A DNA stretch of 64,000 bases from Flavobacteriales bacterium (GCA_017987895.1 JAGNSU010000002.1:74-64073), one strand, 5' to 3'. Counted from the first letter of the stretch, positions 6,274 to 24,333 are shown. The notes: generated by a model not told the origin, from the letters alone. Made by a program: numbers and translations.

Positions 6274-8952
6274 TTGTTGCTGAGCCCCCCCGATACTTTT
6301 ATCGGGTCCGCGCGCCAGCCTGCGCGGGCACCGCATCCATTGGCCAGCGAACGCAAGAACAAGGTCCGCGAAACGGACGAAGTAGAGGAAGCGCCCAAGC
6401 GTTCCCCAAGGCGCAATGCTTCCAAGGAAGCCAGTGAAGGTTTCCTTCCCAAAGTGAAGGCCTTTGTGCGCGACGGCCGCACCCACAAGGTGGTGGGCCT
6501 GATGCTGGTGCTTGGCGCGGGCTATCTGCTGGTGGCGTTCGTCTCCTATCTCTTCACTTGGAAGTTGGACCAGGACCTTACCAACCGATCGTGGGGCGTG
6601 TTACTGAGCCGCGAGGTGCAGGCCGAGAACTGGCTGGGCAAATTGGGCGCACTGCTCTCCCACCGCTTCATCCGCACCTGGTTCGGCATCGCATCGTTCG
6701 CCTTTGTGCTGTGGAGCTTCCTCGGTGGCATGCGCATTCTGCTGGGTACGTGGTTGCTGCCTTTCAAGCGCACCCTTACCTGGACCGCCCTCACGCTGCT
6801 CTGGCTGCCAGCCGCGCTCGGCTTCGTGTTCCGCAGCGGTGATATGGCCTTCCTCGGAGGCGCCGTGGGCTATACGATCAACGGACATCTCACCGGCCTG
6901 ATCGGCAACTTCGGCACCGGGGCCTTGCTCCTCTTCAGCCTCGGCGCGGTGCTGACGGTGGTGTTCGATCCTTCCTTCGAGTGGCTCGGGAAGTTGCTTC
7001 AGAAGAAGGCGCCTGCGGTTGAGGCTGTGGAAGAGGTGGTGGAAGAGCCGGTGGTGAAGTCGAACCGCGCGAAACGCGAAATGGAAGAGGCCGCAGCCGC
7101 TGAAGTGCCGGTCGTTCCCGCTCCTACCCCATCGATGGAGTTGGAGGTGGAGCCTGCTGTGGTGGAGCCGATGATGGATGAGGCATTGCGCGACCCCGGG
7201 TCGGAGCCCGGGGTGAAAGACGACATTGAAGAAGAAACCGAGGAAGAAGAAGTCGGCCTCGAACTTGAAATGGGTGATAGTGCTGTCGAGGAAGTGCTTC
7301 TCGACCCCATCCTCGCGGCTGTGCCTATGTCTGTCGACGGCATGAGCGTGGAGGCGCCCAAGGCGGAGAAAACTTTGAGCGAGGACCAGATCGAGGAGAA
7401 GCTGAAGGAGTTCGGCGAGTACGACCCCACCCTGGACCTGAGCAGCTACGAGCTTCCACCGATCGATCTATTGGTGGACCATGGCACCGGCGAACTGACG
7501 GTGACCAAGGAAGAGCTCGAGGCGAACAAGGACCGCATCGTCGAGACGCTCGGGCACTACAACATCGGCATCGACAAGATCAAAGCGACGATCGGGCCGA
7601 CGGTTACGCTGTACGAGATCATCCCGCAGGCGGGGGTGCGCATCAGCAAGATCAAGAACCTGGAGGACGACATCGCCCTGAGCCTCGCCGCGCTCGGCAT
7701 CCGCATCATCGCGCCGATCCCCGGCAAGGGCACCATCGGTATCGAAGTCCCCAACAGCAAGCCGCAGGTAGTGGGCATGCGCGCGGTGATCGCCAGCGAG
7801 AAGTTCCAGAACAGTACGGCCGATCTGCCCATCGTACTGGGCAAGACGATCACCAACGAGACCTTCGTCACCGACCTCACCAAGATGCCCCACCTGCTGA
7901 TGGCCGGTGCCACGGGCCAGGGCAAGTCGGTGGGCTTGAACGCGATCCTCGTCAGCCTGCTCTATAAGAAGCACCCGAGCCAGATCAAGTTCGTGCTGGT
8001 GGACCCGAAGAAGGTGGAGCTCACCCTCTTCAACAAGATCGAGCGCCACTTCCTGGCCAAGTTGCCCGGCGACAGCGATGCCATCATCACCGATACCAAG
8101 AAGGTGGTGGCCACGCTGAACAGCTTGTGCATCGAGATGGACGAGCGCTACGAGCTGCTGAAGGACGCGCAGGTGCGCAACATCAAGGAGTACAACACCA
8201 AGTTCATCCAGCGTCGCCTGAACCCGGAGAACGGCCACCGCTACCTCCCCTACATCGTGCTGGTGGTGGACGAGTTCGCCGACCTGATCATGACGGCCGG
8301 CCGCGAAGTAGAAACCCCGATCGCCCGCCTCGCCCAGCTCGCGCGCGCCATCGGCATCCACCTGATCATCGCCACGCAGCGCCCGAGCGTGAACATCATT
8401 ACCGGTACCATCAAGGCCAACTTCCCGGCGCGGATCGCCTTCCGGGTCACGAGCAAGATCGATAGCCGCACCATCCTCGATACCGGCGGCGCCGACCAGC
8501 TGATCGGTCGTGGCGACATGCTGCTGAGTACCGGCAACGAGCTTATCCGCATCCAGTGCGCCTTCGTGGATACGCCGGAGGTGGACAAGATCACCGAGTT
8601 CATCGGCAACCAGCGCGGCTATCCCGATGCCCTGCTCCTACCCGAGCCCCCGATGGAGGAAGGCGAAGGGGGAGTGGACCTCGACGATGGCGAGCGCGAC
8701 AGCATGTTCGAGGATGCTGCTCGCCTTGTGGTGCAAACACAGCAAGGCAGCACCTCCCTCATCCAACGCAAGTTGAAGCTGGGCTATAACCGCGCCGGCC
8801 GCATCGTGGACCAACTGGAAGCCGCCGGCATCCTCGGTGGGTTCGAGGGCAGCAAGGCGCGCCGCGTGATGATCCCCAATGAGCAGGCCTTGCATGCGCA
8901 CCTGAACGCGGGTGTGACGGCGGGGGCTGGGCCGGGGATGGGGGGATTCTGA
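6274..8952 (+). CDS. ftsK: DNA translocase FtsK/SpoIIIE
   Basis: N-terminal TM helices, an acidic linker, Walker A GATGQGKS, Walker B VLVVDEFADL, and a gamma winged-helix domain (STSLIQRKLKLGYNRAGRIVDQLE). There is no in-frame ATG upstream of the first TM helix, so the start is probably TTG or GTG and its exact position is uncertain. Confidence 0.95.
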   Translation: MLLSPPDTFIGSARQPARAPHPLASERKNKVRETDEVEEAPKRSPRRNASKEASEGFLPKVKAFVRDGRTHKVVGLMLVLGAGYLLVAFVSYLFTWKLDQDLTNRSWGVLLSREVQAENWLGKLGALLSHRFIRTWFGIASFAFVLWSFLGGMRILLGTWLLPFKRTLTWTALTLLWLPAALGFVFRSGDMAFLGGAVGYTINGHLTGLIGNFGTGALLLFSLGAVLTVVFDPSFEWLGKLLQKKAPAVEAVEEVVEEPVVKSNRAKREMEEAAAAEVPVVPAPTPSMELEVEPAVVEPMMDEALRDPGSEPGVKDDIEEETEEEEVGLELEMGDSAVEEVLLDPILAAVPMSVDGMSVEAPKAEKTLSEDQIEEKLKEFGEYDPTLDLSSYELPPIDLLVDHGTGELTVTKEELEANKDRIVETLGHYNIGIDKIKATIGPTVTLYEIIPQAGVRISKIKNLEDDIALSLAALGIRIIAPIPGKGTIGIEVPNSKPQVVGMRAVIASEKFQNSTADLPIVLGKTITNETFVTDLTKMPHLLMAGATGQGKSVGLNAILVSLLYKKHPSQIKFVLVDPKKVELTLFNKIERHFLAKLPGDSDAIITDTKKVVATLNSLCIEMDERYELLKDAQVRNIKEYNTKFIQRRLNPENGHRYLPYIVLVVDEFADLIMTAGREVETPIARLAQLARAIGIHLIIATQRPSVNIITGTIKANFPARIAFRVTSKIDSRTILDTGGADQLIGRGDMLLSTGNELIRIQCAFVDTPEVDKITEFIGNQRGYPDALLLPEPPMEEGEGGVDLDDGERDSMFEDAARLVVQTQQGSTSLIQRKLKLGYNRAGRIVDQLEAAGILGGFEGSKARRVMIPNEQALHAHLNAGVTAGAGPGMGGF

Positions 8953-8954
8953 GG
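8830..8954 (+). repeat. Direct repeat copy 1 (the functional ftsK 3' terminus)
   Basis: 125 bp that recur at 9570..9694. I counted 6 mismatches. Confidence 0.9.
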
Positions 8955-8997
8955 ACACCAGACCGTGCCTGTTTAACTTGCGATCATCTTCCTTCCC

Positions 8998-9162
8998 ATG
9001 GGCAAGCTGGCTAACAAACCGACCAAGCGCACCACAGTGCGCAAGAGCACACCGAAGCGTCCCAAACGGGCGTTGCCCGATGTGCGGAAGTTCAGCGGTG
9101 CTGTTCCGGGCATGGCGGAATGGGCCTTGGAGGAAGTGAGGCGTATGCGCGATGAGTGGTGA
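8998..9162 (+). CDS. putative small antitoxin of a VapBC-like pair (54 codons, below the ORF-track cutoff)
   Basis: Hand translation: MGKLANKPTKRTTVRKSTPKRPKRALPDVRKFSGAVPGMAEWALEEVRRMRDEW. Its stop overlaps the PIN gene start by 11 nt (gATGAGTGGTGA). Confidence 0.5.
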   Translation: MGKLANKPTKRTTVRKSTPKRPKRALPDVRKFSGAVPGMAEWALEEVRRMRDEW

Positions 9163-9520
9163 GCGGATCCTCGCGGACACCAACATCCTCATCCGGATGT
9201 TCTCGGGTGAGAAGACGGTGGTCGACTTCCTGAGCGGTGCCGACATCCATGTTTCGTTCATCACAGAGATCGAACTGCTCGCAACTTCGCGCATAACCGA
9301 TGCACAAGCGAGGAAGATCCGGGCGTTCCTGGACCAATGCCTGATCATTGGTGCGGAACACGAAGTGCGCTCCTATGCTATCGACTTCCGCAAACAGACC
9401 GGACTGAAGTTGCCCGACTGCATCATTGCCGCCACCGGCGCTTACTTGAACATGCCGCTGGTGACCGGTGACAAGCACTTCGACAAGCTGGAGGATGAGA
9501 TCGCGTTGTTCCGGTTGTGA
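9152..9520 (+). CDS. vapC: PIN-domain toxin (VapC-like ribonuclease)
   Basis: 122 aa with the conserved acidic positions in LADTNILI, TEIELL, LPDCIIAAT and TGDKHF. Confidence 0.85.
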   Translation: MSGERILADTNILIRMFSGEKTVVDFLSGADIHVSFITEIELLATSRITDAQARKIRAFLDQCLIIGAEHEVRSYAIDFRKQTGLKLPDCIIAATGAYLNMPLVTGDKHFDKLEDEIALFRL

Positions 9521-9569
9521 TCACAGCTACGAGCGCGGGGCCCGAGGCGGGAGACCCGGCAGTGGGTTG

Positions 9570-9694
9570 ATCCTCGGTGGATCCGAGGGCAGCAAGGCGC
9601 GCCGTGTGATGATCCCCAATGAACAGGCTTTGCATGCGCACCTGAACGCGGGTGTGACGGCAGGGGCTGGGCCGGGGATGGGGGGATTCTGAGG
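9570..9694 (+). pseudogene. Detached duplicate of the ftsK 3' terminus (direct repeat copy 2)
   Basis: Encodes ...GGSEGSKARRVMIPNEQALHAHLNAGVTAGAGPGMGGF* without the rest of ftsK. It appears in the track as the tail of ORF 9468..9692. Confidence 0.75.
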
Positions 9695-9849
9695 TCTAAG
9701 CTCCGAGCCGTGAGCCTTGAGCTGCCAGCTTTGATCCTGGCCACAAGCTGCAGGCCTCAAGCCGCAAGCTTGTTTTCGGCAAGTTTGAGGCGCGCCATCA
9801 GCACGATCCCCTAGTACCTTCGGACGTGCTTCAAACTCGCTTCATATCC

Positions 9850-11208
9850 ATGCGTACTTCGCTCACATGGGCGGTGCTGGTCGCCTGCCTGCATTGTACA
9901 GGTCAAGAGCAGAACAACTGGTGGTATTTCGGCGAAGTCGCTCTTGATCTCAACTCAGGATCACCTGTTCTGAACACGAACAGCGCAATGGACCAGATGG
10001 AGGGTTCGGCCTCGATCGCGGACGCTCAAGGGAATCTACTGTTCTATACGGATGGAGTGACCATCTGGAACCGAAGTGATCTGCCCATGCCGAACGGCAC
10101 AGGACTTCTTGGCCACTCTTCATCGTCACAATCCGCCGTGATCGTTCCAAAGCCATCGAGTTGTGGCATCTATTATGTGTTCACGGTGCCGGCCCAAAGT
10201 GATGTGATCCCGCTTTCCTATTCCATTGTGGATATGAGTCTGGACGGAGGTATGGGCGATGTATCGATCAAGAACATACCGCTCTATGCAGGAGTGACCG
10301 AGCGACTTTCGGCAACACTGCATGCGAACGGGGTGGACTATTGGGTCGCCGGGCAACGATGCAGCGACCACGCGATGCTGTCGTTCAGACTCACAGCGGC
10401 GGGAGTTGACATTGCACCCGTCGTATCTCCACCACTTCTGATAACAGACGCTTGTTACATCGGCTACCTGAAGTTCGCGCCGAACGGAACCAAGCTTTGT
10501 GCAACATATCTCTACGGCTATCACGCGGTGCTCATGGACTATGACAATGCCACAGGCACAGCTGCGAACCCACTTGTGTTATCTCCGTTCGTGGGCAGCG
10601 GTGGCTATGGCGTAGAGTTCTCCGCGCAGTCCAGTCGCTTGTACTTGCAGAGCATTAACGCCCCTCGAGTCCTTGTGCAATATGATATGCTCGCTGGGGA
10701 CACGGCGGACATTCGAGCATCGCGATTCTTAGTAGACAGCACAGGGATCGTGGATCTGGAATATGTATACGGAGGTGCACTACAGATGACGCCTTACGGT
10801 TCCATCTACGTGAACCGTTTGAACAAACCCTATCTGGCGATCGTGCAATACCCGGATCAGCTCGGAGCTGCGTGTGGATACGTCGATCAAGCCATTGATA
10901 TTTCACCGCTGGAATGCCAGGACGGTTTGCCCAATCTTCTCCCCATCCATCCTTCTTGCGAAGCCCAGGTCGGAATTCCAGAGTCAAATCCTGATGCCTT
11001 TTCCATCGGACCAAATCCAGCTTCTTCACTTGTAGAGATCGTCGGGGTCGCACACGGCCTGGCGATCGTCACCGACGCCGCAGGAAGGGAAATAGATCGT
11101 TTATGGCTCACAGGAGGTAGGGCCGTGCTTGACGTCAGCCACTTCGCGAATGGCTGGTATTTAGTCAAAATGTCCAATAAGACTGCCCGATTGATGGTGC
11201 AGCACTGA
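9850..11208 (+). CDS. secreted protein with a T9SS type-A C-terminal sorting domain
   Basis: Signal peptide MRTSLTWAVLVACLHCTGQ. The N-terminal NNWWYFG...LLFYTDG pattern is seen in Bacteroidota surface proteins. The C-terminus FSIGPNPASSLVEIVG...GWYLVKM...ARLMVQH is CTD-like. G+C looks lower than the flanks. Confidence 0.75.
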   Translation: MRTSLTWAVLVACLHCTGQEQNNWWYFGEVALDLNSGSPVLNTNSAMDQMEGSASIADAQGNLLFYTDGVTIWNRSDLPMPNGTGLLGHSSSSQSAVIVPKPSSCGIYYVFTVPAQSDVIPLSYSIVDMSLDGGMGDVSIKNIPLYAGVTERLSATLHANGVDYWVAGQRCSDHAMLSFRLTAAGVDIAPVVSPPLLITDACYIGYLKFAPNGTKLCATYLYGYHAVLMDYDNATGTAANPLVLSPFVGSGGYGVEFSAQSSRLYLQSINAPRVLVQYDMLAGDTADIRASRFLVDSTGIVDLEYVYGGALQMTPYGSIYVNRLNKPYLAIVQYPDQLGAACGYVDQAIDISPLECQDGLPNLLPIHPSCEAQVGIPESNPDAFSIGPNPASSLVEIVGVAHGLAIVTDAAGREIDRLWLTGGRAVLDVSHFANGWYLVKMSNKTARLMVQH

Positions 11209-11413
11209 GGCTGGTCGGTTGAGTGAAGTACGGTGGTGAGGCCAGTTGCAAACTGGCCGGATGATCCATCGGCTTGACCCGTGGCGGCACAAGTGAGCGG
11301 CCTCCCTCCACTCTGGCCCGGCGCGGCCGAACACTTGCGCCATTTAATGGCGAGCAAGTGGGATGAACCAACGCTTGACCCGCGGCAGTACAGATGAAGC
11401 CCCCGCTAAATCA

Positions 11414-12979
11414 TCAGGTGGCACTACTTATCCCCATCATATGTGTAAAGCGCCTTGCCCGGAGAAGTTCACAGAACTCCTTGAGGTTCTGGCTTAGTGC
11501 AGCAATCGTAAGTGCGTTACCCTTATCAGACTGATGTACATTGTACTGTGAACCCTCGAACCAACTACGCTTAGCATCATTCGCACTGTTGGCTATAGTA
11601 TTCAGATTTCGGCGAAGCGTGACGAACCTATCGCCAAGGGTAAACTCCGGCTCTGTAGTATTTATTTCTTTTTGGCCATACGCATCTACGCCGTACTTCT
11701 GAAAGAACATCTCCACGGGATTCTTGAGCTTCCTAGAAAGCAACGATGGGATGTAAAACGCACGTGCTACGCTATCCCTATCATCCTCCTGAATCGAACC
11801 GTCCACTTTCGTTAGCTTGTTCAATACCTCAAGCAGTGCGTCAATGCTGCCGAACACTGAGCACAACTGCTTAACGACTTGCATCATTGCAACGTCATCC
11901 GATGTCATTGTAAAGTGTGTCAGGTCCGTCAATCCAAGCTTCCGCATGGAATGATGCAACCCAACATCAACGGGATGATGAATCACAATGAAACAATCGA
12001 ATCCTGAAACCTTCGCTCGCATCAATTGCCTGACGGTCAGCCAACCCTTGTCCGCACATGCAGACAGTAGGATTTGGAGGACTACTTGTGCCGAAGGATT
12101 TGAGACACTTGAAGATGTTCGGCAGTATTCGGTTACAGTGTCAGATATGCTGAACTCGAAATGTTCCTCTGAAAGGAACTTGTCAATGTAGCCCTCAAAA
12201 TCGACCAAAGCACCATAACGATGCTGATATATGAGTCTTATGTTGTTGACGTCGCACACGAGTATGATTTTGTCGAATCCGAACTTATTTTCATCGGAAT
12301 CACTCTCCATATGAGCACTAAATATGTTCATGATTCTGAAGATATGCTCTGGGTCAAGGCGGTCTAAGTCATCCACTACCAGAAGCACGGCCTTGCCAGC
12401 CTCACGCTGCCGAGATATAATCGAGCGTATGTAGTCGGCTACGACACCACTTTCCCAAACAGAACTGGCGGATTGATGCAAGCTTTCGACAAACTCTGTA
12501 GCTCTGACAGCCTCTGGCTGTGATTCCCTTGTGAGCTTCTCCTCGAACTCATTGACATCCTTTACGAGATCCGAAATGGCTTGCATCACTCCACTGACCT
12601 TCTCCGTGAAAGGAATCGCCTTGGACAAGGCGGTTGCGAGATGACTTGAGAATGCTAAGGGGTTGCGGATGATGTACTGAAGCCAGACGTGTTGGATAGG
12701 CATTTTCCGCAACTCTTCTGGGGCGGCAAGACCTAATATGTAGAATTGGAGCAGCACGTCAGCCTTAACGATATTGAAGATGTCGTCATTGCTGCTCACA
12801 CTATAGTTCACCGGGTTTACTCGGACCATTACATACTCATACGACCTTGAACTAAAATACTCGCGGATAAAGGTTGACTTCCCAGTACCAAAAGGTCCAG
12901 ATACGATAGTTCGCTTGATGGCCGGGTTAGAAATGTGCATATCGAACCGCCTCGTAATCGCACCATAAGGTATTTCCAT
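11414..12979 (-). CDS. KAP-family P-loop NTPase
   Basis: Walker A GPFGTGKST, Walker B-like LLVVDDLDRLDPEH, and a large helical remainder. Visibly AT-richer than the neighbours. I chose the ATG giving MEIPYG; the track ORF extends to a TTG at 13024. Confidence 0.8.
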   Translation of the reverse strand: MEIPYGAITRRFDMHISNPAIKRTIVSGPFGTGKSTFIREYFSSRSYEYVMVRVNPVNYSVSSNDDIFNIVKADVLLQFYILGLAAPEELRKMPIQHVWLQYIIRNPLAFSSHLATALSKAIPFTEKVSGVMQAISDLVKDVNEFEEKLTRESQPEAVRATEFVESLHQSASSVWESGVVADYIRSIISRQREAGKAVLLVVDDLDRLDPEHIFRIMNIFSAHMESDSDENKFGFDKIILVCDVNNIRLIYQHRYGALVDFEGYIDKFLSEEHFEFSISDTVTEYCRTSSSVSNPSAQVVLQILLSACADKGWLTVRQLMRAKVSGFDCFIVIHHPVDVGLHHSMRKLGLTDLTHFTMTSDDVAMMQVVKQLCSVFGSIDALLEVLNKLTKVDGSIQEDDRDSVARAFYIPSLLSRKLKNPVEMFFQKYGVDAYGQKEINTTEPEFTLGDRFVTLRRNLNTIANSANDAKRSWFEGSQYNVHQSDKGNALTIAALSQNLKEFCELLRARRFTHMMGISSAT

Positions 12980-13182
12980 TGCAGCTGGTATAACTAGTGT
13001 GTCGAGAACAACCTGATGGAGCAAGTTAGTCTAGAGGGTGTAGCGCAAATGATGACTTGAGTGAACCCGACCGAAAAGTTGGGCGGCACGCCTCGCCGAC
13101 GCCGGGACGGCTATGGCGGAGCGCGTCAGGGCTTCGGCGGCCAAAGGAGCCCGTTGGTGGAACGCAGCCACGATCTTCAAGC

Positions 13183-14421
13183 CTATGGCGCCAGCACCAC
13201 ACCCCACATGAAGTCGAACTGCAGGGCGCTGTCCAGCACTGCGGGAATGGTCGCGCCGGTGGGGTTGTACGGCAACATGGCGATGGCCGCGCTGGAGGGC
13301 TGGCCCTTCGCGTTGAAGGAGGCGTAGGAATGGCAGCTGATGCACGATGAGATGGCCACAGTGCCGTTGCCCACGATGCGCTCGATGACGGAATTGCCCA
13401 GCACGTAGGGCGTGCCGTCCGGGGCGTTGAAATCCACCTGGCTGGACTTGAGGCAGTAGTTCTGCCACACCGGCGAGAGGTGCGCTTCCTCCATAAGCGC
13501 CATCAACTTCTCCGTTTTCGGGCATGGACCATACTGCGTGTTGATCTTCCGCAGGTTGGGCAGGGTGCGTGGTGTTGTGGCGCCGAAGGTGTCCCAGGAG
13601 CCGATGTCGTCCGCCCGGCCCGGTGAGAGGTGATGCTCGAAGGTGCCCCATACCCAATTGGCGTTGCGCCGGCTGCTGACGTGCATGGAGACGAGGGCGT
13701 ACTCCACGGAATCGGAAACACCGGTATAGTAGAGTTCATACAAACGCTCCATGGTACCGATCTCCGGGATCCATTGAAGCAAGGTCTTCACAGGCACCCA
13801 ATCGCCTTTCACGGCGATCGCCGTGGTGGGCATGGTGACCTTGAAATTCTTCGCGTAGGCCACCGCCAAACCCGCCTTGGTATTGAGGCCATTGTTCACG
13901 ATGTAGTCGAACATGGGGCGGTTGCGGCGTACTTCTTCGGCGATCCACGGCGTGGGCGTACCGGTGGTGGGGAACCCTCCTACCGCCGCGTTGCCCGGCG
14001 GGTTGAACGGCACATCGATGGGGCCGGTATGATGGCTGGCCAGCCAGTGGAGCACGCTGGACTGGAACTTCTTGGGCGCACCGCGGCCGGGCCATTGCGG
14101 CGTTTTAGAGAAGGTCTCCTTGTCCGAAGCCCAGGTCTCGAACACCACGGGCTTCGGCGCGTCCGCATAGGCAGGTGAAACGAACTGCACGAACAGCCGC
14201 CAGATGAACTCATCGGAGTTCTGGTCCGTGCTGTCCACTTTACCTGCACGGGATAGTTCGGCTACGCGGATGACACCCTCCGTGGCGGCCACCAGATCCG
14301 GAACAGGTGAAGGCTCAGGTGCCTTGTCCGCTGTGCCGCAACCGGCTGTGATGATCAGGCCCAAGGCGATCGTGAGACAAGTGTGACCGGCGGGAATGAA
14401 GGAGGATCGCTTCTGTGGCAT
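13183..14421 (-). CDS. hypothetical lipoprotein with a single CXXCH motif
   Basis: Lipobox LIITAGC. There is one C-terminal CISCH (CXXCH) motif. No family recognised. Confidence 0.6.
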   Translation of the reverse strand: MPQKRSSFIPAGHTCLTIALGLIITAGCGTADKAPEPSPVPDLVAATEGVIRVAELSRAGKVDSTDQNSDEFIWRLFVQFVSPAYADAPKPVVFETWASDKETFSKTPQWPGRGAPKKFQSSVLHWLASHHTGPIDVPFNPPGNAAVGGFPTTGTPTPWIAEEVRRNRPMFDYIVNNGLNTKAGLAVAYAKNFKVTMPTTAIAVKGDWVPVKTLLQWIPEIGTMERLYELYYTGVSDSVEYALVSMHVSSRRNANWVWGTFEHHLSPGRADDIGSWDTFGATTPRTLPNLRKINTQYGPCPKTEKLMALMEEAHLSPVWQNYCLKSSQVDFNAPDGTPYVLGNSVIERIVGNGTVAISSCISCHSYASFNAKGQPSSAAIAMLPYNPTGATIPAVLDSALQFDFMWGVVLAP

Positions 14422-14708
14422 GGTGTGATGTGGATAGGTGCCACGAGACTACTGACTTGAAGCTGCCCCCACAATACCGAGTTTCCGGGGGGTGGCACCC
14501 GTGTCCCTGCTATTTGGTCCACCATGCCCTGCCCCAGCGTCACCCCGATCTGGCGCAAGACTTCCGCGTGCGAAGACGGGTGTTGGGCAGGGCGCCTACA
14601 TCGCCTTCGCGTAGCCGCTTCGGCGGAGCAAGGCGCCAAAGCGCTTTGGCGACGGCGCGCGGGCGTATTGTGCCGCGTTCCTTGGATCTGTGGGCAAGGG
14701 CCAATGCA

Positions 14709-14740
14709 GCCACAAGCCACTGGCCTCAAGCCACAAGCTT
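14709..14740. repeat. Intergenic repeat gccacaagccactggcctcaagccacaagctt (copy 1)
   Basis: Identical 32-mer at 14945..14976. Degenerate relatives lie near 9741..9772 and 21046..21068. Confidence 0.85.
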
Positions 14741-14874
14741 TAACCGTGCTTTGCCAACGGAGAGCTTACACGGATCGGGAAGGTGGGCGGCACGCCTTCG
14801 CTACAGCTTCGGCGGCCAAAGGAGCCCATTGGTTGGTTGGTCATGTGGTTGTGATGGCTTCGAGCTTGGAATGC

Positions 14875-14899
14875 GGTCTATGGTCGTTGGTCCTAGGTC
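14875..14899. repeat. Intergenic repeat ggtctatggtcgttggtcctaggtc (copy 1)
   Basis: Perfect 25-mer repeated at 15351..15375. A degenerate copy lies at about 19028..19050. Confidence 0.85.
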
Positions 14900-14944
14900 T
14901 TGGGCGAGCTCAGCCTTGAGCCACGAGTTGCGAGCGGTATGCCA

Positions 14945-14976
14945 GCCACAAGCCACTGGCCTCAAGCCACAAGCTT
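14945..14976. repeat. Intergenic repeat gccacaagccactggcctcaagccacaagctt (copy 2)
   Basis: Identical to 14709..14740. The next ~45 nt are also similar (..ggagagc[t/c]tacacgg..). Confidence 0.85.
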
Positions 14977-15018
14977 GATGGGTGCTTCGCGAAATGGAGA
15001 GCCTACACGGTTCCATGG

Positions 15019-15312
15019 GAGATCCCGGATAGCCGCTGCCCGGTGCTGAATGCGGAGCCTGGTTTTCAAAATGCGGCTTGGAAACCACCCCTACCCCTCC
15101 TTATGTACTCGGGGCGAGGGATCGCCCCTCAGGAGGGGAGTTGAACGTTGAGGAGATCCCGGATAGCCGGGGCCCGGTGCTGAATGCGGAGCCTGGTTTT
15201 CAAAATGCGGCTTGGAAACCACCCCTACCGCTCCTTTGTACTCGGGGCGAGGGATCGCCCCTGAGGAGGGGAGTTGAACGTTGAGGAGATCCCGGATAGC
15301 CGGGGCCCTGAT
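15019..15312. repeat. Tandem repeat with a 133-134 bp unit, about 2.2 copies
   Basis: The unit start gagatcccggatagcc recurs at 15019, 15153 and 15286. The units are near-identical by eye and each contains the hairpin ggggcga-ggga-tcgcccc. Confidence 0.85.
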
Positions 15313-15350
15313 GCTGCGCATCACCCGGCTTCCGGGATGACGACGTGGTT

Positions 15351-15375
15351 GGTCTATGGTCGTTGGTCCTAGGTC
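15351..15375. repeat. Intergenic repeat ggtctatggtcgttggtcctaggtc (copy 2)
   Basis: Identical to 14875..14899. Confidence 0.85.
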
Positions 15376-15413
15376 CTAAGTGAAGGATGGCTGTCCGATG
15401 ACCCTTTGAACGC

Positions 15414-18400
15414 CTACCCTCTTGCCCTTACGGTGGCAGACATGAGCATGACGTTGTAGGGATTCCACACGGACATGGCGAAGTACATGGTGGTGGAGCC
15501 CTCGTGGTTCGGGGTGGTGAAGCGCTCGATGAGGTAGGGGGCGTAGACCCCACCGCCTTTATCCTCACGGCACGGGTCACTTAGACCATCGGGCTTGTTC
15601 TCTTCGTGGATGAACTGTCCGAACGCCGTACGCATATCCAGAATGTTCTCGGGACCGGACCATGGCCCCCAGGGATGCGGACTTTGGTGTTCCAGCACCA
15701 CGTACGGATTGTCCCCATTGTAGAGCATCACGAACCGGCTGATGAAGGGATTCCAGCGCACGCCGAACTCGCCTACCGAGCCGGAGAGGAAGAGCGGCCT
15801 GGCGGATGCCTCGTCGCGGCCCCACAGCGGCCTGGACGAGGCATCGGATCCTGCGAAGTAGCGAATGGCCGAACGATCCTCGAGCCGGTTCAAGGGGACG
15901 TGAGCCAGGTAGATGTTGCTGCGCCGATAGCCGCCACTACCGAAGATGAGGATGCCCTCGCCATCCACTTCTGGTAGACCAGGATGATCGAAGTTCCTTA
16001 AGCGTTGGAGCGAGACGTTGATGAATTTCTCACGCGAGAGCTCATAGAGCGATGTGCCGAAGTTCAAGCCATTGTCCTCCGACCGCGCTAGCACGCTGCG
16101 GTGCATGGAAACAAAGTCATCGGCGCTATCGCTAGCGATGCGGCCCGTGGTGAAGAAGACGAACATGCTGCTGCCGTTGGTGACCTGCTGGGCGAAACTC
16201 CATGGCAAGGCCACGTTCGCATTGTCATGAAAGAAATGTTGGAGCCGGCCGCCCACCGGAACGACCACTTCGAAATTGCCGTGACCACTGCCAAAGTCAG
16301 ACTGGATGATGCAGCCCGCATCCGTGATGCCCCTGGCGACGGTGTGGCCTCGTTGCCACCGGCCGGCCAGGTTGGCATTGTCATGGAAGTAGTGTGCGAG
16401 TTGGTCCCCCTCGGGCACAACGACCTCGAAGTTGCCATGGTCACCGCCTTTGAAATCGGACTGCATGATGCAACCGGGGCCGCTAGCATGATCGGTGATG
16501 ACGCGGCCGCGTTGCCATTGGGTATGGCCGCTGTAATTATCCAGGAAGTAGTGTACCAATTGGTTGCCCTCCAGAACAACCACTTCGAAATTGCCGTGTT
16601 CGCTGCCGAAGTCGGACTGGATGATGCACCCCGGGCCCGTGGCGCGATCGGTGATGACGCCGGCGCGTTGCCACTGTGCGGGGCTGCCGGAATTGTCGCG
16701 GAAGTAGTGGACCAGTTCATTCCCCTCCAGGACGACCACTTCGAAATTGCGGTGGTCGCTGCCGAAGTCGGACTGGATGATGCAACCCGGGCCGGTGGCC
16801 TGCGCGGTGATAATGCCGGCGCGTTGCCATGTTGCCGGACCGCCGGAGTTGACGAGGAAGTAGTGGACCAGGTTATGGCCCTCCAGCACCACCACTTCGA
16901 AATTGCCGTGGCCGCTGCCGAAGTCGGACTGCATGATGCACCCTGGACCGGTGGCTTGGGTGCTGATGGTCTGCGCGCATTGCCATGGCGTGCGGACATC
17001 GGTGTTATCATGCCACCAATGGTTCAGCCGTTGCCCTTGCAGGACCACTACTTCAAAATTCCGGTGGATGAGGCCGTAGGTGCTACGGATGATCCAGCCA
17101 GGACCGCTTTCCTTTCGTTCGAAGCTGATGCCATCGGTGGGTACGCAGAAGGCATTCTGCACAATGTCGTCCACCTTGGGAGCGCTGGGATTGAACTTCA
17201 GTTCGATATCCTTCAAGACCACCGTATCGGAACAGAAGGCGATGCTGTCGCGTGCGAGACCGTCATCGGTACGGATGACACCATCCACGTTCGTATCCCC
17301 GAAAAGGAAGGCGAGCCGGCCATCGTGCTCGAACGCTTGACCGAGGTCCGTGCCTGTGACGCCGTAGCGGCTGTGCGTGCGACTGCGTGTAGGTTGTTTC
17401 AGCTGGCGGTCTTCCTCCCCGGTGAGTTGAGCGATCTTCTTGGTGTCACATATATGCGGCGACTCCTTGTATGGTTCAGCGAACCTTTCGCGTAGGACGG
17501 AGGATCGCCACCACGGCGTATCGCCACTGGTGTTGTGGTGAACGTAGTGAACGACCGAACGCGTGACCTCCGCCGCCAAGACCTCGTAGTTAGCACGCTC
17601 GCCAAGCAGCAACGGGCCATTGGCCCCCCGGGTGCCGCGCGCGATGCATCCCGGACCGCCAGAGGCAACGCTGACCACCTGGCCCCGCTTCCACGTGCGC
17701 ACCGGTGCTGAGTTGTCGAGGAAATAGTGCACGAGTTCATTCTCTTCCAACACGACTACCTCGAAGTTCTTGTGTCCGCTACCGAAGTAGCCCTGGATGA
17801 TGGAGCCTGCGCCGCTTGCCAGATCGGTGACCACCCCGACGCGCTGCCATTGCGCCGGGCCGCCGGCATTGTCCAAGAAGTAGTGTACGAGGTCCCTTCC
17901 CTCCAGCACGACCACTTCGAAGTTGCCGTGCTGGCTGCCAAAGTCGGACTGAATGATACAACCAGGCCCTGTGGCGCGCCCTGTGATGACCCCCACGCGT
18001 TGCCACTGAGAAGCACCGCCGTAGTTGTCCAGGAAGTAGTGGACCAGTAGATTTCCCTCTGGCACCACCACTTCGAAGTTGCCGTGGTTGCTGCCGAAAT
18101 CGGACTGGATGATGCAGCCCGGACCAGTGGCTTTTGTGCTGATGACCTGTGCGCGTTGCCATGGTGCGTTGCCGCTGTGGTTGTCCAGGAAGTAGTGCAC
18201 GAGTTCATTCCCTTCCAACGCGACCACCTCGAAGTTGCCGTGGTTGCTGCCAAAGTCGGACTGGATGAGGCCCCCCGGGCCGGTCGCTTTTGTGGTGATG
18301 GGCTTAACCTCTATCCACTTTCTCCCCTCACTCCCCCCTCTAGCTTCCGAGTAATAGTGCCACAAGGTGCCGTTGCTGAAGAGGACCGCTTCCAAGTGGT

Positions 18401-18455
18401 TGGGTGTACCGAAATCACTGCTGATGAGGCATCCAGGGCCGACGAGATCCGACAT
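15414..18455 (-). CDS. 1013-aa repeat protein with 6 propeller-blade repeats, a DUF4185-like N-half, 6 more blade repeats, then a DUF4185-like C-half
   Basis: Twelve ~52-aa repeats with consensus TGPGCIIQSDFGSxHGNFEVVVLEGNxLVHYFLDNxGxxxxWQRAGVIT. The flanking parts carry DUF4185-type motifs (GVTGTDLGQAFEHDGRLAFLFGDT; YRRSNIYLAHVP; WNPFISRFVMLYNG; VYAPYLIERF; MSVWNPYNVMLMS). No signal peptide or T9SS CTD is visible. Confidence 0.85.
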   Translation of the reverse strand: MSDLVGPGCLISSDFGTPNHLEAVLFSNGTLWHYYSEARGGSEGRKWIEVKPITTKATGPGGLIQSDFGSNHGNFEVVALEGNELVHYFLDNHSGNAPWQRAQVISTKATGPGCIIQSDFGSNHGNFEVVVPEGNLLVHYFLDNYGGASQWQRVGVITGRATGPGCIIQSDFGSQHGNFEVVVLEGRDLVHYFLDNAGGPAQWQRVGVVTDLASGAGSIIQGYFGSGHKNFEVVVLEENELVHYFLDNSAPVRTWKRGQVVSVASGGPGCIARGTRGANGPLLLGERANYEVLAAEVTRSVVHYVHHNTSGDTPWWRSSVLRERFAEPYKESPHICDTKKIAQLTGEEDRQLKQPTRSRTHSRYGVTGTDLGQAFEHDGRLAFLFGDTNVDGVIRTDDGLARDSIAFCSDTVVLKDIELKFNPSAPKVDDIVQNAFCVPTDGISFERKESGPGWIIRSTYGLIHRNFEVVVLQGQRLNHWWHDNTDVRTPWQCAQTISTQATGPGCIMQSDFGSGHGNFEVVVLEGHNLVHYFLVNSGGPATWQRAGIITAQATGPGCIIQSDFGSDHRNFEVVVLEGNELVHYFRDNSGSPAQWQRAGVITDRATGPGCIIQSDFGSEHGNFEVVVLEGNQLVHYFLDNYSGHTQWQRGRVITDHASGPGCIMQSDFKGGDHGNFEVVVPEGDQLAHYFHDNANLAGRWQRGHTVARGITDAGCIIQSDFGSGHGNFEVVVPVGGRLQHFFHDNANVALPWSFAQQVTNGSSMFVFFTTGRIASDSADDFVSMHRSVLARSEDNGLNFGTSLYELSREKFINVSLQRLRNFDHPGLPEVDGEGILIFGSGGYRRSNIYLAHVPLNRLEDRSAIRYFAGSDASSRPLWGRDEASARPLFLSGSVGEFGVRWNPFISRFVMLYNGDNPYVVLEHQSPHPWGPWSGPENILDMRTAFGQFIHEENKPDGLSDPCREDKGGGVYAPYLIERFTTPNHEGSTTMYFAMSVWNPYNVMLMSATVRARG

Positions 18456-18629
18456 GTTATGATCGATAAAGGGTTAGTTCTTCTGATGCGAAGCGAATAT
18501 CGGGAACCCGTGTTTAGAGGAACACCCCACGAACGTGGGGGCGGTGCTGTTCCACTATTCGCGTTGACGGTAGTGATCGTGAAGCCATAGTGGTGAGGGG
18601 CCCGGGTGACATCATGACCCGCATTCTTC

Positions 18630-18998
18630 TTAGTCAGGGTCTTTGGCGAAGAGGTTGGCTTGGTGGGTAAGGTGAAAGCCTTCGCAGATGGGGCAGCGGT
18701 AGATGCGCATGCGGCCGCGGCCGGCTTTCCAGATCTTGCTGACAGCACGGTTGGCGCCGTGTTCGGTGTAGATGAATTTGCCGCGGCAGGTGTTGTCCAC
18801 ACGTGGACGGTGAATGATGCGGGTGAGGGTGATGTAGCGGGCGCGGTCCTCCAATCTGGTGCGTTCGCCGAGAGTGAGGCTGTCCAAGTTCTTGAGGGCG
18901 CGCTCGCGGACGTCCGGCTCGGTGAAGCGGAAGAGTTCTTCGTGGAGCCGTGGGTGACTCTTGAGGATCTTGGGGAGGAGTGGGCGGGGTTTGGCCAT
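18630..18998 (-). CDS. small basic protein with a C-terminal zinc-ribbon-like motif
   Basis: Starts MAKPRPLLPK and ends ...RMRIYRCPICEGFHLTHQANLFAKDPD (CxxC plus His residues). No family recognised. Confidence 0.5.
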   Translation of the reverse strand: MAKPRPLLPKILKSHPRLHEELFRFTEPDVRERALKNLDSLTLGERTRLEDRARYITLTRIIHRPRVDNTCRGKFIYTEHGANRAVSKIWKAGRGRMRIYRCPICEGFHLTHQANLFAKDPD

Positions 18999-19079
18999 GG
19001 CAGCGAGCAACGGACGGTTGGTGCTGTGACTATGGTCGTTGGGACTAGGTGGACACGGAGCCGAGGAGGATGGGTACGT

Positions 19080-19107
19080 GGTGAGTGGTGAGTGGTGAGT
19101 GGTGAGT
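19080..19107. repeat. Heptanucleotide microsatellite (GGTGAGT)x4
   Basis: ggtgagtggtgagtggtgagtggtgagt, between the HTH gene stop and the Zn-ribbon gene start. Confidence 0.85.
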
Positions 19108-19133
19108 GGAATGCCAGCCTGGAGCTGCTGACT

Positions 19134-19520
19134 TCAGGCTTCAAGCTGGCCGCCGGCTTCGGGCTTGGGTGGGGAAAGGCGGGCGGTGAGTTCTTCGGTG
19201 AGGGATTGAAGGCGGTCCAAGGGAAGTTTCTCGATGATGGTGGCGATGGGTAGTGGCGGGGTCTCCTGGCGAACAAGGATGGTGAGGGTGTCTTCCGCTG
19301 GCGGTGGTGCACCGGGACCTGGTGTATAGCTGAGCATATCGTGGACGGTACACTTAAGCAAATGGCAGAGACGCTCGATGTGGCCGCACTTGAGCGTGCT
19401 GAATTTGCCGTGGAGGATACGATTGGAGGTATGGTGGCTGAAGCCTTTCTTACGCAACCAGGCGAAGGGTTCGGTGATGCCGCGCATTTTGATGATGCGG
19501 GCCGGATCGAAGGATAGCAT
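19134..19520 (-). CDS. XRE-like helix-turn-helix protein with a Pro-rich C-terminal tail
   Basis: Starts at the ATG giving MLSFDPARIIKMRGITEPFAWLRKKGFSHHTSNRILHGKFSTLKCGHIERLCHLLKCTVHDMLSY. This pattern is common in short Bacteroidota HTH regulators. The longer track ORF (to 19757) has no support upstream. Confidence 0.7.
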   Translation of the reverse strand: MLSFDPARIIKMRGITEPFAWLRKKGFSHHTSNRILHGKFSTLKCGHIERLCHLLKCTVHDMLSYTPGPGAPPPAEDTLTILVRQETPPLPIATIIEKLPLDRLQSLTEELTARLSPPKPEAGGQLEA

Positions 19521-19739
19521 GGTATGTTGGTATTGGTTATGGGGCGGAAGTAATCCGGAAATCAAATGCGCGGCCCCGTGAAAAATATCGGGGTCTTTCC
19601 ACCAAGGGGTGTGAACAACGGCGGAGGGCGCGGTGGTGTTGGGCCCGCATGGACCGTGTTGTGACGGAACGTGCGGTTTGACCCCGGTGGACGATGCCAG
19701 GATCCGGAGTTCTGCACAGTTACCTGAAATGAACGATAG

Positions 19740-20012
19740 GTTGCCTTGATAGGACATTCAGTTCCTTTGTCTATCGTCCTTGTTCCTTTGATAGGTCGCT
19801 CTGTCCTCCTGACCGGTTGATCTGTTCCGTTGAACAGCGTAATCGTGACCATGTTCGGTGAAACTATTCCCTTGAACGGTCCCTATATTCCCTCAAACAG
19901 CGCCTCTGTGATTCTAATTGGCGTTCCAGTTCCATTGGTCGGTGGCTCTGTTCCCCTATCAGCTGTTTGTGTACCCATGATAAGCGTCTCTGTTCCCTTG
20001 AACAAAGCATTG
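19740..20012. repeat. 13 consecutive, exactly phased 21-bp direct repeats (iteron-like array)
   Basis: The core GTTCCnTTG begins at 19740, 19761, 19782, 19803, 19824, 19845, 19866, 19887, 19908, 19929, 19950, 19971 and 19992. Approximate unit consensus is GTTCCnTTGAnnnGnGnnTCT. No single ORF spans the array. Confidence 0.9.
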
Positions 20013-20080
20013 TGGGAACGCTACGGTACCTGTAACCGGACGCATATTCCCTCTTTCGATCAATACCCATCGACAGGGAT

Positions 20081-20177
20081 ACACCTAGTTACCATTATTA
20101 TACATTATGATTCGGCATTCATTATACCATATAGTATACATATTGGTAGATGTTAATTCACATTATTTACTCATTTA
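20081..20177. other. Strongly AT-rich ~100-bp tract with CATTAT-type words
   Basis: accattattatacattatgattcggcattcattataccatatagtatacatattggtagatgttaattcacattatttactcatttattg. This stands out against a high-G+C background and directly follows the 21-bp array. Confidence 0.6.
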
Positions 20178-20234
20178 TTGAAACACATACATGGCAATAT
20201 CAGTAAGAACGGAAAATCAACAACTTCAAAGACC

Positions 20235-20912
20235 ATGACAGACCCACAAGAAAACAGAATGAGCATGTTCCTGAGCACCCAACTGGTGCTGCAGGAAAAC
20301 CAGGGGAAGTGGAGCGGGATACCTGCCTTTGTGCAGGCGAACGCCGACTTCGACGCAGGCATTACCGCATTGCGAGCCGCTACCACCACGCAGATCAAGG
20401 ACCTGCGCGGTTACACCGTAGACAAGCAGAATTCCCAGGAGAGGATGTGGAGCTTGACCATGAAGGTGAGCGGCGGCGTGATGGCCTGGGCGGAGGTGGA
20501 AGGGAACCAGGGCTTGGCACAGGAGATGAACGTGGTGCAGAGCGAGTTCGCTATTTACCGCGACGCTGTTCTGGCGGAGCGCTGCACCGGGGTGCATGAC
20601 GTGGCTCTGGCGAACCTGGCCAACCTTGTGGACTATGGCGTGACCGCAGCGGACACGACAGCGCTGAAGGCGGCCATTGACGCATACATCGCCCTGCTGG
20701 CCCTGCCGCGGATGCTGGTGAACGTGCGCAAGAGCGTGACGAGCGAGATCGGGTTGCTGATCCGCGACAATATGCGCCTGCTGAGCCGCCGGATGGATCG
20801 CTTGATGCGGAGGTTCGAGCTGAGCGACCCGGCGTTCTTCCGGACGTATATGAACGCGCGGATCATCATTGACCAAGGCTCTGGAAAGGCGCCGGTGGTA
20901 GTCGCGGCGTGA
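20235..20912 (+). CDS. hypothetical protein (Ala/Leu-rich, probably helical)
   Basis: First ATG of ORF 20178..20912 (MTDPQENRMSMF...). It is followed by a terminator-like hairpin. No family recognised. Confidence 0.6.
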   Translation: MTDPQENRMSMFLSTQLVLQENQGKWSGIPAFVQANADFDAGITALRAATTTQIKDLRGYTVDKQNSQERMWSLTMKVSGGVMAWAEVEGNQGLAQEMNVVQSEFAIYRDAVLAERCTGVHDVALANLANLVDYGVTAADTTALKAAIDAYIALLALPRMLVNVRKSVTSEIGLLIRDNMRLLSRRMDRLMRRFELSDPAFFRTYMNARIIIDQGSGKAPVVVAA

Positions 20913-20927
20913 GCGACAACACTTGAT

Positions 20928-20967
20928 GCGAAGGGCCCTGGGGTTGACCTGGGGCTTTCGCTTTTTT
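20928..20967 (+). terminator. Rho-independent terminator candidate
   Basis: gcgaagggccctggggttgacctggggctttcgc followed by tttttt. Confidence 0.6.
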
Positions 20968-21122
20968 GAACCAGCTACAAGCCTCTAGCTACTAGCCTCT
21001 AGCTAGTAGCCTCAAGCTTTGAACGCGGGCATGCGACAAGCTGCCTCTGGCTGCAAGCCACAAGCTTGATAACCCGGGCTTGCTCCCCTCCGTAAAACAC
21101 GGCCGACAACGCATGAACCGCC

Positions 21123-21800
21123 ATGATCCGCTCCAACATGACCCCTGCGCAGGTGGCTTCGGCCGCTCGCAGGGACGTGGGGCAAGTGCTGCGGCATGCG
21201 GCGGAGAGGCACAGTGACCTGGAGCGCCTCTGCACCAAACTGGGCAAGGGCGAACAGGTGGCAAAGAGCGGGTGCTTCACTTCACAGAAAGGGTTGCAAT
21301 GGGTGTACGTGGCGGCCGCGAGCCAGGGCCGCGTGCGGATCTACCCCCTCGTTTGGTGGGCGACCACAACGGGCACCTGCGCCATGCAGATCGACGCCGA
21401 GGGGCCTGCGGCCTTCTTCCAGGAACATGTGATGGACCGCTATATCAAACGTTACCTGCGCGGAAGCACGCTGTTCAACGCTTTGCGTGAGTTCCACCGG
21501 CGCAACTTCGACAAGGCGAGCCAGCCATGCGATTACAAAGGCGACCGCGAGAACTACACGGCGGTGATCGACCATGGCTACGTGGCCGGGGAATACCAGA
21601 AGGACGATGCGATAGTCCACTACCGCACCTTTTATGAGTTGGCGCGTGGCGAGAAGCGCTTCGGACACTTGCGCCCGGCCCAGAACTGGCGTCAGCTAAT
21701 GGCCACGATCGACTTTGAACGTGTTGCCCGCCGCGACACGCCACATTTCGCCTGGGGGCGCGGGTACTTGATGCGGGCGGAGATGGGGATGGCGGCGTAG
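21123..21800 (+). CDS. hypothetical protein
   Basis: 225-aa ORF with an ATG start. No recognisable motifs. Confidence 0.5.
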   Translation: MIRSNMTPAQVASAARRDVGQVLRHAAERHSDLERLCTKLGKGEQVAKSGCFTSQKGLQWVYVAAASQGRVRIYPLVWWATTTGTCAMQIDAEGPAAFFQEHVMDRYIKRYLRGSTLFNALREFHRRNFDKASQPCDYKGDRENYTAVIDHGYVAGEYQKDDAIVHYRTFYELARGEKRFGHLRPAQNWRQLMATIDFERVARRDTPHFAWGRGYLMRAEMGMAA

Positions 21801-21971
21801 CCGGTCATCGTTAGCGGTGTGATCACTTCAGTCCGCAGGGTCCCGCGGACGGTGAGCCTGCGGGGACATCGAACACCCAGGCCCCAATGGCAAGCTTGAT
21901 GCGGGCTGCGGATGCGCAAGCCTGAGCTGCGTGCTTGACCCCACGCAGGGGTACCCTACTTTGTCGAACGC

Positions 21972-23066: not shown

Positions 23067-23130
23067 GATATTTCGCTACGGCTATTCGCTTGAACCTTCG
23101 CCGCGATCCCGAGAAGCACATCATGATTCC

Positions 23131-23316
23131 GAGCCTGTTCGGGATCTGTTGAACGAAGGACCCCGAGGCTATTTTTCGATCAGACGAAGCCGGAAGATCA
23201 TCGCGTAGTAGCCTGCCCCGGTCCCCGAACCGGGGGTGCCTACGGGATCATTTTGCGGCGAAGCATGGGCGGAAAAGAGACCGGAGGACGAGTGTGAGGA
23301 GATCCCGAACAGGCTC
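23131..23316. mobile_element. 186-bp MITE-like element with perfect 17-bp terminal inverted repeats
   Basis: Left end gagcctgttcgggatct, right end agatcccgaacaggctc. The interior matches 56633..56818 in reverse orientation. Confidence 0.7.
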
Positions 23317-23363
23317 TAAGACCGGGACAAATCCCATCTTCGGCGCAGCATCCACTCCGACCT

Positions 23364-24317: not shown

Positions 24318-24333
24318 GTTACGCGGGCAATAC

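Follow-up and report, generated by a model that had tools for sequence, protein, structure and literature searches.

We analysed a stretch of 64,000 nucleotides from a Flavobacteriales bacterium (GCA_017987895.1, JAGNSU010000002.1:74-64073; the whole stretch is referred to as the window), in which the 3' end of ftsK is duplicated and the two copies enclose a small toxin–antitoxin (TA) cassette of the vapBC type. We propose that this addiction cassette was inserted at the ftsK stop codon by recombination guided by homology of the gene terminus, without a dedicated integrase, and put the probability of this reading at roughly 0.55. The genome from which the window stems, a 4.1-Mb assembly that is 92% complete, is designated G000; G numbers likewise denote the other genomes compared.

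The ftsK terminus is duplicated around a two-gene cassette

In the window, ftsK is intact (6274..8952, + strand) and encodes an 892-amino acid protein in which Pfam recognises the 4TM, alpha, FtsK/SpoIIIE motor and gamma domains (PF13491, PF17854, PF01580 and PF09397). A repeat search together with a base-by-base comparison revealed a 125-nt direct repeat of 95% identity. Copy 1 (8830..8954, +) comprises the working last 41 codons and the stop of ftsK, and copy 2 (9570..9694, +) is a detached ftsK terminus, also of 41 codons and a stop, that has no upstream gene body. The two copies become similar abruptly at 8830 and remain so up to 2 nt past the TGA. The initial annotation had given an offset of 740 bp and six mismatches, five of them synonymous, and a recount in the ftsK frame agreed exactly. 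The synonymous differences are all at third positions (copy 1/copy 2: G/A at 8841, C/T at 8865, G/A at 8883, C/T at 8889 and G/A at 8922), and the single nonsynonymous one at 8843 turns TTC into TCC, that is, F into S. According to BLAST against the whole 4.1-Mb assembly, the 125-nt repeat occurs in two copies only and is no dispersed repeat family. The 615 bp between the copies contain just two open reading frames (ORFs) of 54 and 122 amino acids; the annotated 11-nt overlap of the shorter ORF with a PIN toxin gene was also exact (ORF list, PF01850).

The structure is not an assembly artefact, as the repeat is imperfect and the same repeat-plus-cassette arrangement recurs in two independent long-read metagenome-assembled genomes (MAGs), G057 and G050, and in one JGI metagenome contig. 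G000 contains scaffolding artefacts of another kind, namely exact 127-nt repeats with a spacing of 227 around 100-N runs (k=127 overlaps), which sit on contigs C8, C29, C51, C74, C93, C111, C141, C151, C178, C186, C192, C202, C211 and C233.

Cassette and adjoining gene end travel together between species

G057 and G050 carry the same insertion as the window with the same 740-bp period. The 615-bp cassette is 98.9% (G057) and 98.5% (G050) identical to that of the window, the 1500 nt of ftsK that precede the repeat are 94.7% and 93.9% identical, and the neighbouring genome 81–87% and 92–97%; in the 2.5 kb after copy 2, neither genome has homology to the window. Since the cassette is 98.5–98.9% identical while its flanks reach only 81–97%, the comparison indicates that it has moved recently between species. 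The cassette also turns up elsewhere in G000, where contig C98 carries a second vapBC copy in an unrelated context (78% identical over 8986-9513). Both observations bear out the cassette mobility anticipated in the initial annotation. A 77-nt repeat around the C98 copy was considered as a target duplication and rejected, being a dispersed upstream-region motif.

The point at which diverged sequence turns into near-identical sequence differs between lineages. Counted from the ftsK stop, window and G057 differ at 22 sites in the stretch -303..-126 but agree throughout -125 to +158, so that copy 1 is 100% identical while ftsK just 5' of it differs by ~12%. In the comparison with the G050 lineage, three sites in the left ~20 nt of copy 1 differ (-120, -111 and -105). 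Beyond -105, the only difference in L121, a G050-like strain known from a single extra contig of a metagenome scan, is at -27, and the G050 MAG itself differs at -35, -27 and -21. The identity tract starts at ~-125 against G057 and after -105 against the G050 lineage, as judged from few informative sites, and in both cases the switch lies within the repeat or at its edge. The right-hand ~100 nt of copy 1 travel with the cassette between species. The suggestion that the element supplies a replacement terminus is in line with this, as it is the attached copy that co-travels in G057, G050 and L121.

Copy 2 behaves differently. Only its left ~15 nt (A at -112, and C at -110 giving the F to S change) are common to all three species, and its right part as well as the downstream flanks are lineage-specific in window, G057 and G050. 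Two copy-2 states are common to window and G057 and two more to all three species; between species, copy 2 diverges by 3–6%.

The detached copy as a displaced terminus

From the synonymous differences, the initial annotation had judged that copy 2 looks like a once-functional terminus of another allele. Pairwise alignment gave a dS of 0.19, a dN of 0.011 and an omega of 0.06 (NG86). The probability of at least five synonymous changes out of six is 0.005 under uniform mutation, 0.018 with transitions only and 0.04 with GC-to-AT transitions only. However, at all five synonymous sites copy 1 has G or C and copy 2 has A or T, so that the bias in this single pair is suggestive of a once-functional second allele, not decisive. 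Pooled over 19 independent copy pairs, 48, 29 and 108 differences fall on codon positions 1, 2 and 3, respectively (third positions, 58%). With third codon positions at 84% GC and decay biased from GC to AT, codon-position bias alone is unable to separate two alleles from one decaying copy, and the comparison between species gives the stronger evidence for a displaced terminus. G111 has an array of five copies, in which the proximal detached ones show, relative to the working end, 12 synonymous versus 5 nonsynonymous codons and 7 versus 4, the distal ones 0 versus 6 and 1 versus 5. Such a gradient would be expected if working termini were displaced successively and then decayed. In its behaviour, the detached copy is supported as a displaced, once-functional ftsK terminus.

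The same data allow us to weigh an origin in situ, in which an ancestral local duplication of the terminus received the TA cassette between its copies and was then passed on vertically while the detached copy decayed. The copy-2 states held in common by two or three species would follow from such a history, the uniform GC-to-AT direction of the synonymous differences is as mutational decay would produce it, and a 206-bp terminus duplication without cargo exists in G041 (see below). Yet cassette and copy 1 are 98.5–100% identical between species whose flanks share 81–97%, with the change in identity at the repeat, and the sequence directly 3' of copy 2 is unrelated in all three. Furthermore, the 3–6% divergence of copy 2 is far below what neutral decay would have produced since the split, which left ~6% mostly synonymous divergence in ftsK itself, and a pooled third-position share of 58% lies at the upper limit for decay of a single copy. 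Purely vertical descent with decay is therefore disfavoured, and we regard it as rather improbable.

ftsK is a recurrent insertion site in the genus

We searched the 125-nt ftsK terminus in 131 genomes of this uncultured Flavobacteriales genus, whose host records are uncultured Flavobacteriales MAGs, many from activated sludge, and found it in 97. Tandem termini, with 2–5 copies close together on one contig, are present in 17 of the 97 (G000, G001 with two loci, G041, G044, G048, G050, G053, G057, G060, G063, G066, G089, G090, G100, G111, G130 and G132), and the remaining 80 have no array. In 24 sampled members of the genus, the ftsK match stops at the stop codon and the downstream sequence is unrelated between genomes.

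The initial annotation had called for empty sites in related genomes; besides the 80 genus members with a single terminus, one clean empty/occupied pair was found for a sister cassette. In G001 (G001a), ftsK is followed directly by a gene for a 96-amino acid membrane protein, and in G048 a DUF433/DUF5615 pair plus an 83-nt terminus copy lie between ftsK and the same membrane-protein gene.

Self-BLAST of each locus gave array periods between 206 bp and 12.4 kb and copy identities between 76% and 99%. The right edge of the repeat mostly lies within a few nucleotides of the stop codon (-2..+4), with four copies reaching 10–40 nt past it. Left edges vary from -30 to -257 and cluster loosely at -92..-103 and -74..-83, at a conserved block with the palindrome GGCGCGCC. 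If arrays arise by homology-guided recombination, a right edge at the stop codon is to be expected because donor and recipient flanks diverge there and share no homology beyond.

These edges also speak to a transposition-like insertion with a long staggered cut, which would leave two initially identical copies, both derived from the recipient. Such a process has a precedent in restriction-modification systems, and a few copy pairs are indeed near-identical (99% in G100, 97% in G041). A staggered cut would however have no reason to end at the stop codon rather than anywhere in the intergenic region, as most independent cases do. Moreover, most pairs are only 76–93% identical with synonymous-biased differences, and copy 1 co-transfers with the cassette. 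We hold this explanation to be as improbable as vertical descent.

A two-gene TA-like module comes first among the cargos in 9 of the 17 genomes. The PIN pair of the window is the first cargo in the window, G057 and G050, and homologous PIN pairs take this place in G063 and G060; a DUF433 plus DUF5615/PIN_10 pair was found in G048 and G090 (by Pfam) and in G100 and the first G111 cassette (by DNA similarity). Other first cargos are a weak IS200-like ORF (G130) and small unknown ORFs (contig 32 of G001, G089), and larger segments with proteins of the type IX secretion system (T9SS) type occur in contig 5 of G001, G066, G053 and the distal layers of G111. In G041 (L028, G041:C1 3140-3551), a 206-bp tandem duplication holds no cargo at all. 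Its units are ~96% identical and consist of a 92-nt ftsK terminus and 114 nt of hairpin-rich downstream sequence. This cargo-free duplication may represent an emptied cassette site or a first step toward insertion.

The architecture recurs at other gene ends

A scan of the G000 genome for gene ends that recur 3' of an intact gene pointed to a sucB-like gene for an E2 succinyltransferase on contig C20 (G000:C20:35115-39935), the last ~100 nt of which recur at +705 and +4726. The first of these intervals contains a DUF4160 plus DUF2442 pair. The sucB terminus is tandem-duplicated in at least eight further genomes of the genus, that is, in at least nine including G000. At this locus, G000 carries an extra 1.77 kb compared with G050 and G057, and its sucB is 84–89% identical to that of G050 versus 94.6% for the block downstream, which suggests that the G000 sucB is an imported allele. 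Furthermore, in another MAG (L043) a close homologue of the cassette lies between two copies, 75–100 nt long, of the 5' start of the gene that follows, the detached one being frameshifted. The ftsK, sucB and L043 cases are alike in that the gene stays intact and an end fragment lies on the far side of the cargo. A comparison of the ftsK and sucB sites gave no common motif beyond a chance 7-mer.

No recombinase accompanies the arrays

The initial annotation compared the two copies with attL and attR and considered a minimal or decayed integrative element. As far as geometry goes the comparison is apt, since a gene terminus is duplicated, the gene remains intact and the repeat ends at the gene end. 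In its enzymatic form, this explanation would make the cassette a cis-mobilisable mini-element (CIME-like or decayed) that is acted on in trans by a tyrosine recombinase. The attP of the cassette would include the 3' end of ftsK, attL and attR would correspond to the two repeats, and accretion would account for the tandem arrays. Elements that integrate at 3' ends and restore the gene have this geometry, including the repeat that stops at the gene end and the tandem arrays. Left edges that partly cluster near the conserved block with GGCGCGCC and the left ~15 nt of copy 2, identical in three species like an element-borne arm, would fit as well, and two Xer-like recombinases are available in every genome.

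Nevertheless, neither integrase nor transposase was found in the ~17 ftsK arrays, and this includes the 12.4-kb segment of G001a, which has no such domain; no integrase lies near the window cassette, which encodes the TA pair only. G000 possesses two Xer-like PF00589 tyrosine recombinases of ~300 amino acids, both of housekeeping type, and no serine recombinase (PF00239); as the assembly is 92% complete, the absence of a cognate integrase is not proven. The array-bearing genomes mostly have just two Xer-like genes, none of them inside an array. One Xer-like gene, 2.8 kb 3' of ftsK in G079, was examined as a cognate integrase and dismissed as a housekeeping type. The cassette ends have no conserved sequence either: among nine cassette homologues, homology covers 8996-9520, i.e. 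the two ORFs only, with no terminal or inverted repeats and no att core, and the junctions of the arrays share no motif. Left edges scattered from -30 to -257, identity-tract breakpoints that differ between the G057 and G050 lineages (a moderately strong argument, given few sites), and the recurrence of the pattern at sucB and at the 5' end of another gene, sites with nothing in common beyond a chance 7-mer, all argue against a site-specific enzyme. Finally, ftsK lies 110–160 kb from dnaA and hence is not dif. A recombinase acting in trans is in our view unlikely, if less so than the two alternatives above, and the decayed integrative element is not borne out. The initial annotation had named movement of a TA cassette by homologous recombination as the other option; with variable breakpoints, no recombinase and no conserved ends, this fits better.

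Further candidates were rejected. An integron cassette with attC is contradicted by the fold of the 125-nt repeat, which does not exceed that of shuffled sequences (z = 0.35 and -0.17), and by the lack of an extra tyrosine recombinase or an integron integrase. For a dif/Xer site as used by integrative mobile elements exploiting Xer (IMEX), ftsK is too near the origin (158 kb from dnaA in G041 and 110 kb in G048, both complete genomes), no skew switch was seen at 9 kb of the window, and the repeat has no AT-rich dif-like core. G-quadruplex-like G-runs at the ftsK end (GGGGGCTGGGCCGGGGATGGGGGG) are no general driver, as the sucB terminus has no such runs.

A model of homology-guided insertion

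In our model of insertion guided by terminus homology, the incoming DNA would carry a foreign ftsK terminus with the cassette directly behind it, either as a linear fragment anchored in ftsK or as a 740-bp circle of terminus and cassette. A crossover in the terminal ~125 nt of the resident gene would keep the working gene end intact as copy 1, now mostly imported, and displace the resident terminus downstream as a dead fragment, copy 2. The direct repeats could then permit loop-out of the RecA type and re-entry of the Campbell type, or the unit could be transferred on larger fragments; either route would explain why terminus and cassette are found as a unit in three species. The RecA dependence of this pathway, its circular or linear donor and the direction of transfer are inferred. 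The TA pair probably stabilises an insert that would otherwise be deleted between the 125-nt repeats, and a penalty on such deletions would account for the dominance of TA-like pairs among the small cargos. Homology-anchored import also explains the variable left edges and breakpoints, the lack of a recombinase and the finding of like structures at other conserved genes with a variable region next to them.

Several observations weigh against this model. The loose clusters of left edges at the palindrome leave room for a site-specific enzyme at that place, and the cargo-free duplication in G041 may mean that duplication and insertion are separable steps. At third positions with 84% GC, synonymous changes that run from GC to AT toward copy 2 also fit neutral decay. 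No empty site was found in the species cluster of the window itself, the nearest cassette-free genomes being ~80–88% identical in ftsK, and the sharp boundary at -125 in the G057 comparison, being based on few sites, may in part be due to chance. ComEC and DprA are present and, being also present in non-competent controls, are uninformative, which leaves the route of DNA uptake unproven.

We may speculate one step further that the 740-bp unit belongs to a class of minimal, enzyme-free 'homing' cassettes whose sole targeting device is a copied end of a gene that is essential and conserved. They would loop out and re-enter through the homologous recombination of the host, always restoring the gene, with the TA pair punishing loss. 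We put this forward tentatively and consider it doubtful. If it were true, repeated rounds of homing would build up a layered series of displaced gene ends from which past insertions at the locus could be read.

The toxin–antitoxin pair

The cassette opens with a 43-nt leader (8955..8997, +) from the ftsK stop to the antitoxin start, which is conserved with the cassette in G057, G050 and L121 and probably contains a putative promoter and ribosome-binding region. The antitoxin ORF (8998..9162, +) encodes a VapB-like protein of 54 amino acids, K/R/P-rich at its N-terminus and ending in a conserved C-terminal tail, ...VPGMAEWALEEVRRMRDEW. Its stop is overlapped by the start of the toxin ORF (9152..9520, +), which encodes a VapC-type PIN protein of 122 amino acids. 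A GC-rich spacer (9521..9569, +) follows that harbours a degenerate copy of a genome-wide hairpin motif, the GCAGGGTCCCGARGNCGGNGACCCTGC family; it possibly serves as a putative terminator of the cassette and folds at shuffle level (z-score 0.1).

The toxin matches the PF01850 PIN domain with 9.2e-15 (55.8 bits, cut-off 23.6) and the NCBIfam VapC equivalog NF047959 with 6e-6 (26 bits, under the 80-bit cut-off), and its best solved relative is the ribonuclease VapC in PDB 7BY2_B (1e-7). Pfam, NCBIfam and PADLOC gave no hit for the 54-amino acid ORF, nor was a DNA-binding domain recognised in it by these libraries. In more than 20 Bacteroidota loci, ORFs of 51–71 amino acids are found directly 5' of PIN homologues in the same arrangement as the window pair. 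Their alignment (A1) defines an antitoxin family of ~55 amino acids with the C-terminal motif K-F/Y-x-G ... R-D/N-E-W, typical members of which exceed no family cut-off in the same three libraries. The last 15 positions of the A1 profile match, weakly (E=0.014), the C-terminal tail of 7BY2_A, a CopG-family VapB that is the cognate partner of the very VapC chain matched by the toxin; the same residues also match YiiF (2K5J, E=0.015). The tail match lends support to the initial view of this ORF as an antitoxin, and we read it as VapB-like, with the toxin-binding tail apparently kept and without a known DNA-binding domain. Putative VapB-like antitoxins of ~55 amino acids are widespread in Bacteroidota; besides 8998-9162 of the window, they were seen in the loci L041-L079, there just 5' of position 4001. 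In the subfamily of the window antitoxin, the K/R/P-rich stretch replaces the usual N-terminal MV.ILKKG... segment.

GC-rich hairpins of a dispersed family, CCGCAGGGTCCCGAAGACGGTGACCCTGCGG, occur at 9540-9562 of the window and at ~12 other intergenic sites in G000, among them C7:19404, C32:13173, C54:4064 and C199:18283, and may be terminators or REP-like elements. Two hairpin copies lie beside the weak IS200/RAYT-like ORF in the ftsK cassette of G130. Ahead of the detached copy, a hairpin of similar kind is present in G041, G130 and G089 and missing from G048, G090, G100 and others. With ~12 genomic copies and this inconsistent presence, the hairpin before copy 2 was rejected as an end signal of the cassette and is more probably a terminator.

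The accessory island downstream

Copy 2 is followed by a variable accessory island (9695..32250), delimited by Pfam, GC content and synteny blocks, that contains a T9SS cargo gene, a low-GC KAP-type NTPase gene, a DUF4185 enzyme gene and others. The GC content is 0.49–0.53 at 10–13 kb of the window. Conserved synteny with relatives resumes at ~32.2–33 kb, where the sequence that neighbours ftsK in G012, G008 and G013 maps to 32240-33043. The replaceable island after copy 2 spans 23 kb in the window, ~12 kb in G050 and ~9 kb in G057, with the cassette at its left rim. Within it, the gene for a KAP/YobI-type P-loop NTPase (11414-13024, - strand, GC 0.49) has weak PADLOC matches to PDC-S20, mad8 and PifA and is a candidate defence gene.

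Relation to known systems and implications

Nobusato et al. (2000, Gene 259:99) reportedly described an 'insertion with long target duplication' for gene complexes of restriction-modification systems. For restriction-modification modules, this type of insertion involves repeats of ~30–420 bp and no mobility genes, and is found mostly in naturally competent species (PMC2853133; PMC3874152). Furuta et al. (2010, PMC2853133) define it by repeats >30 bp of a target that is single-copy elsewhere, an insert <20 kb and the lack of mobility genes; at the window locus, a 125-nt repeat that is not dispersed flanks a 615-bp insert without mobility genes. In both systems, a small addiction module (post-segregational killing) without transposase or integrase lies between long direct repeats whose length varies from tens to hundreds of bp, and the repeated sequence is single-copy in relatives, often at gene ends and unique in the genome. 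In contrast to the restriction-modification insertions, the cargo at ftsK is a type II TA pair and the host belongs to an uncultured Flavobacteriales genus. Here, ftsK is a recurrent hot spot with many cargos and stacks of up to five termini. Moreover, the ftsK repeats differ mostly synonymously and the attached copy co-transfers with its cargo, which points to homology-anchored import rather than to self-duplication by the recipient.

The likeness to other mobile units is more partial. The window cassette resembles integron cassettes and IMEX in being small, promoter-poor and without a recombinase of its own, in arrays ending in repeats; however, the ftsK repeat is a coding terminus and not a folded attC, there is no integron integrase, and the site is not dif. 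Certain integrative elements insert at the 3' ends of tRNA or protein genes and bring a replacement terminus with them; CIMEs are integrase-less derivatives of such elements (ICESt1/ICESt3 family, fda). The ftsK units share with these the duplicated gene end, the intact gene, tandem accretion and repeat-bounded organisation without an integrase. They differ in that no integrase-bearing partner was found at ftsK, and in having no fixed core, variable edges and breakpoints, and units that can be as short as 206–740 bp. With VapBC as solved in PDB 7BY2/7BY3, the pair has in common a 122-amino acid PIN toxin, an overlapping upstream antitoxin and a C-terminal tail resembling the VapC-binding one, whereas the window antitoxin has only 54 amino acids, a K/R/P-rich N-terminus and no ribbon-helix-helix, AbrB or Phd domain. 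We would class the locus with the integrase-free insertions with long target duplication, as a variant that carries a TA pair and occupies a hot spot extending through the genus.

It is little understood how TA pairs make their way through chromosomes in the absence of an obvious vehicle. The window shows a bare two-gene cassette that passed from species to species at one exact spot, and the only feature common to the moved cassettes is a copy of the terminus of the target gene. As two housekeeping genes and about one-sixth of the genus are affected, these wastewater Flavobacteriales may commonly gain accessory genes in this way. A gene-end fragment 3' of an intact gene provides a signature that can be searched for in other phyla, and stacked displaced termini form a readable record of successive insertions. 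For TA addiction, the locus offers a concrete and testable role, namely the stabilisation of inserts that are prone to loss via their flanking direct repeats.

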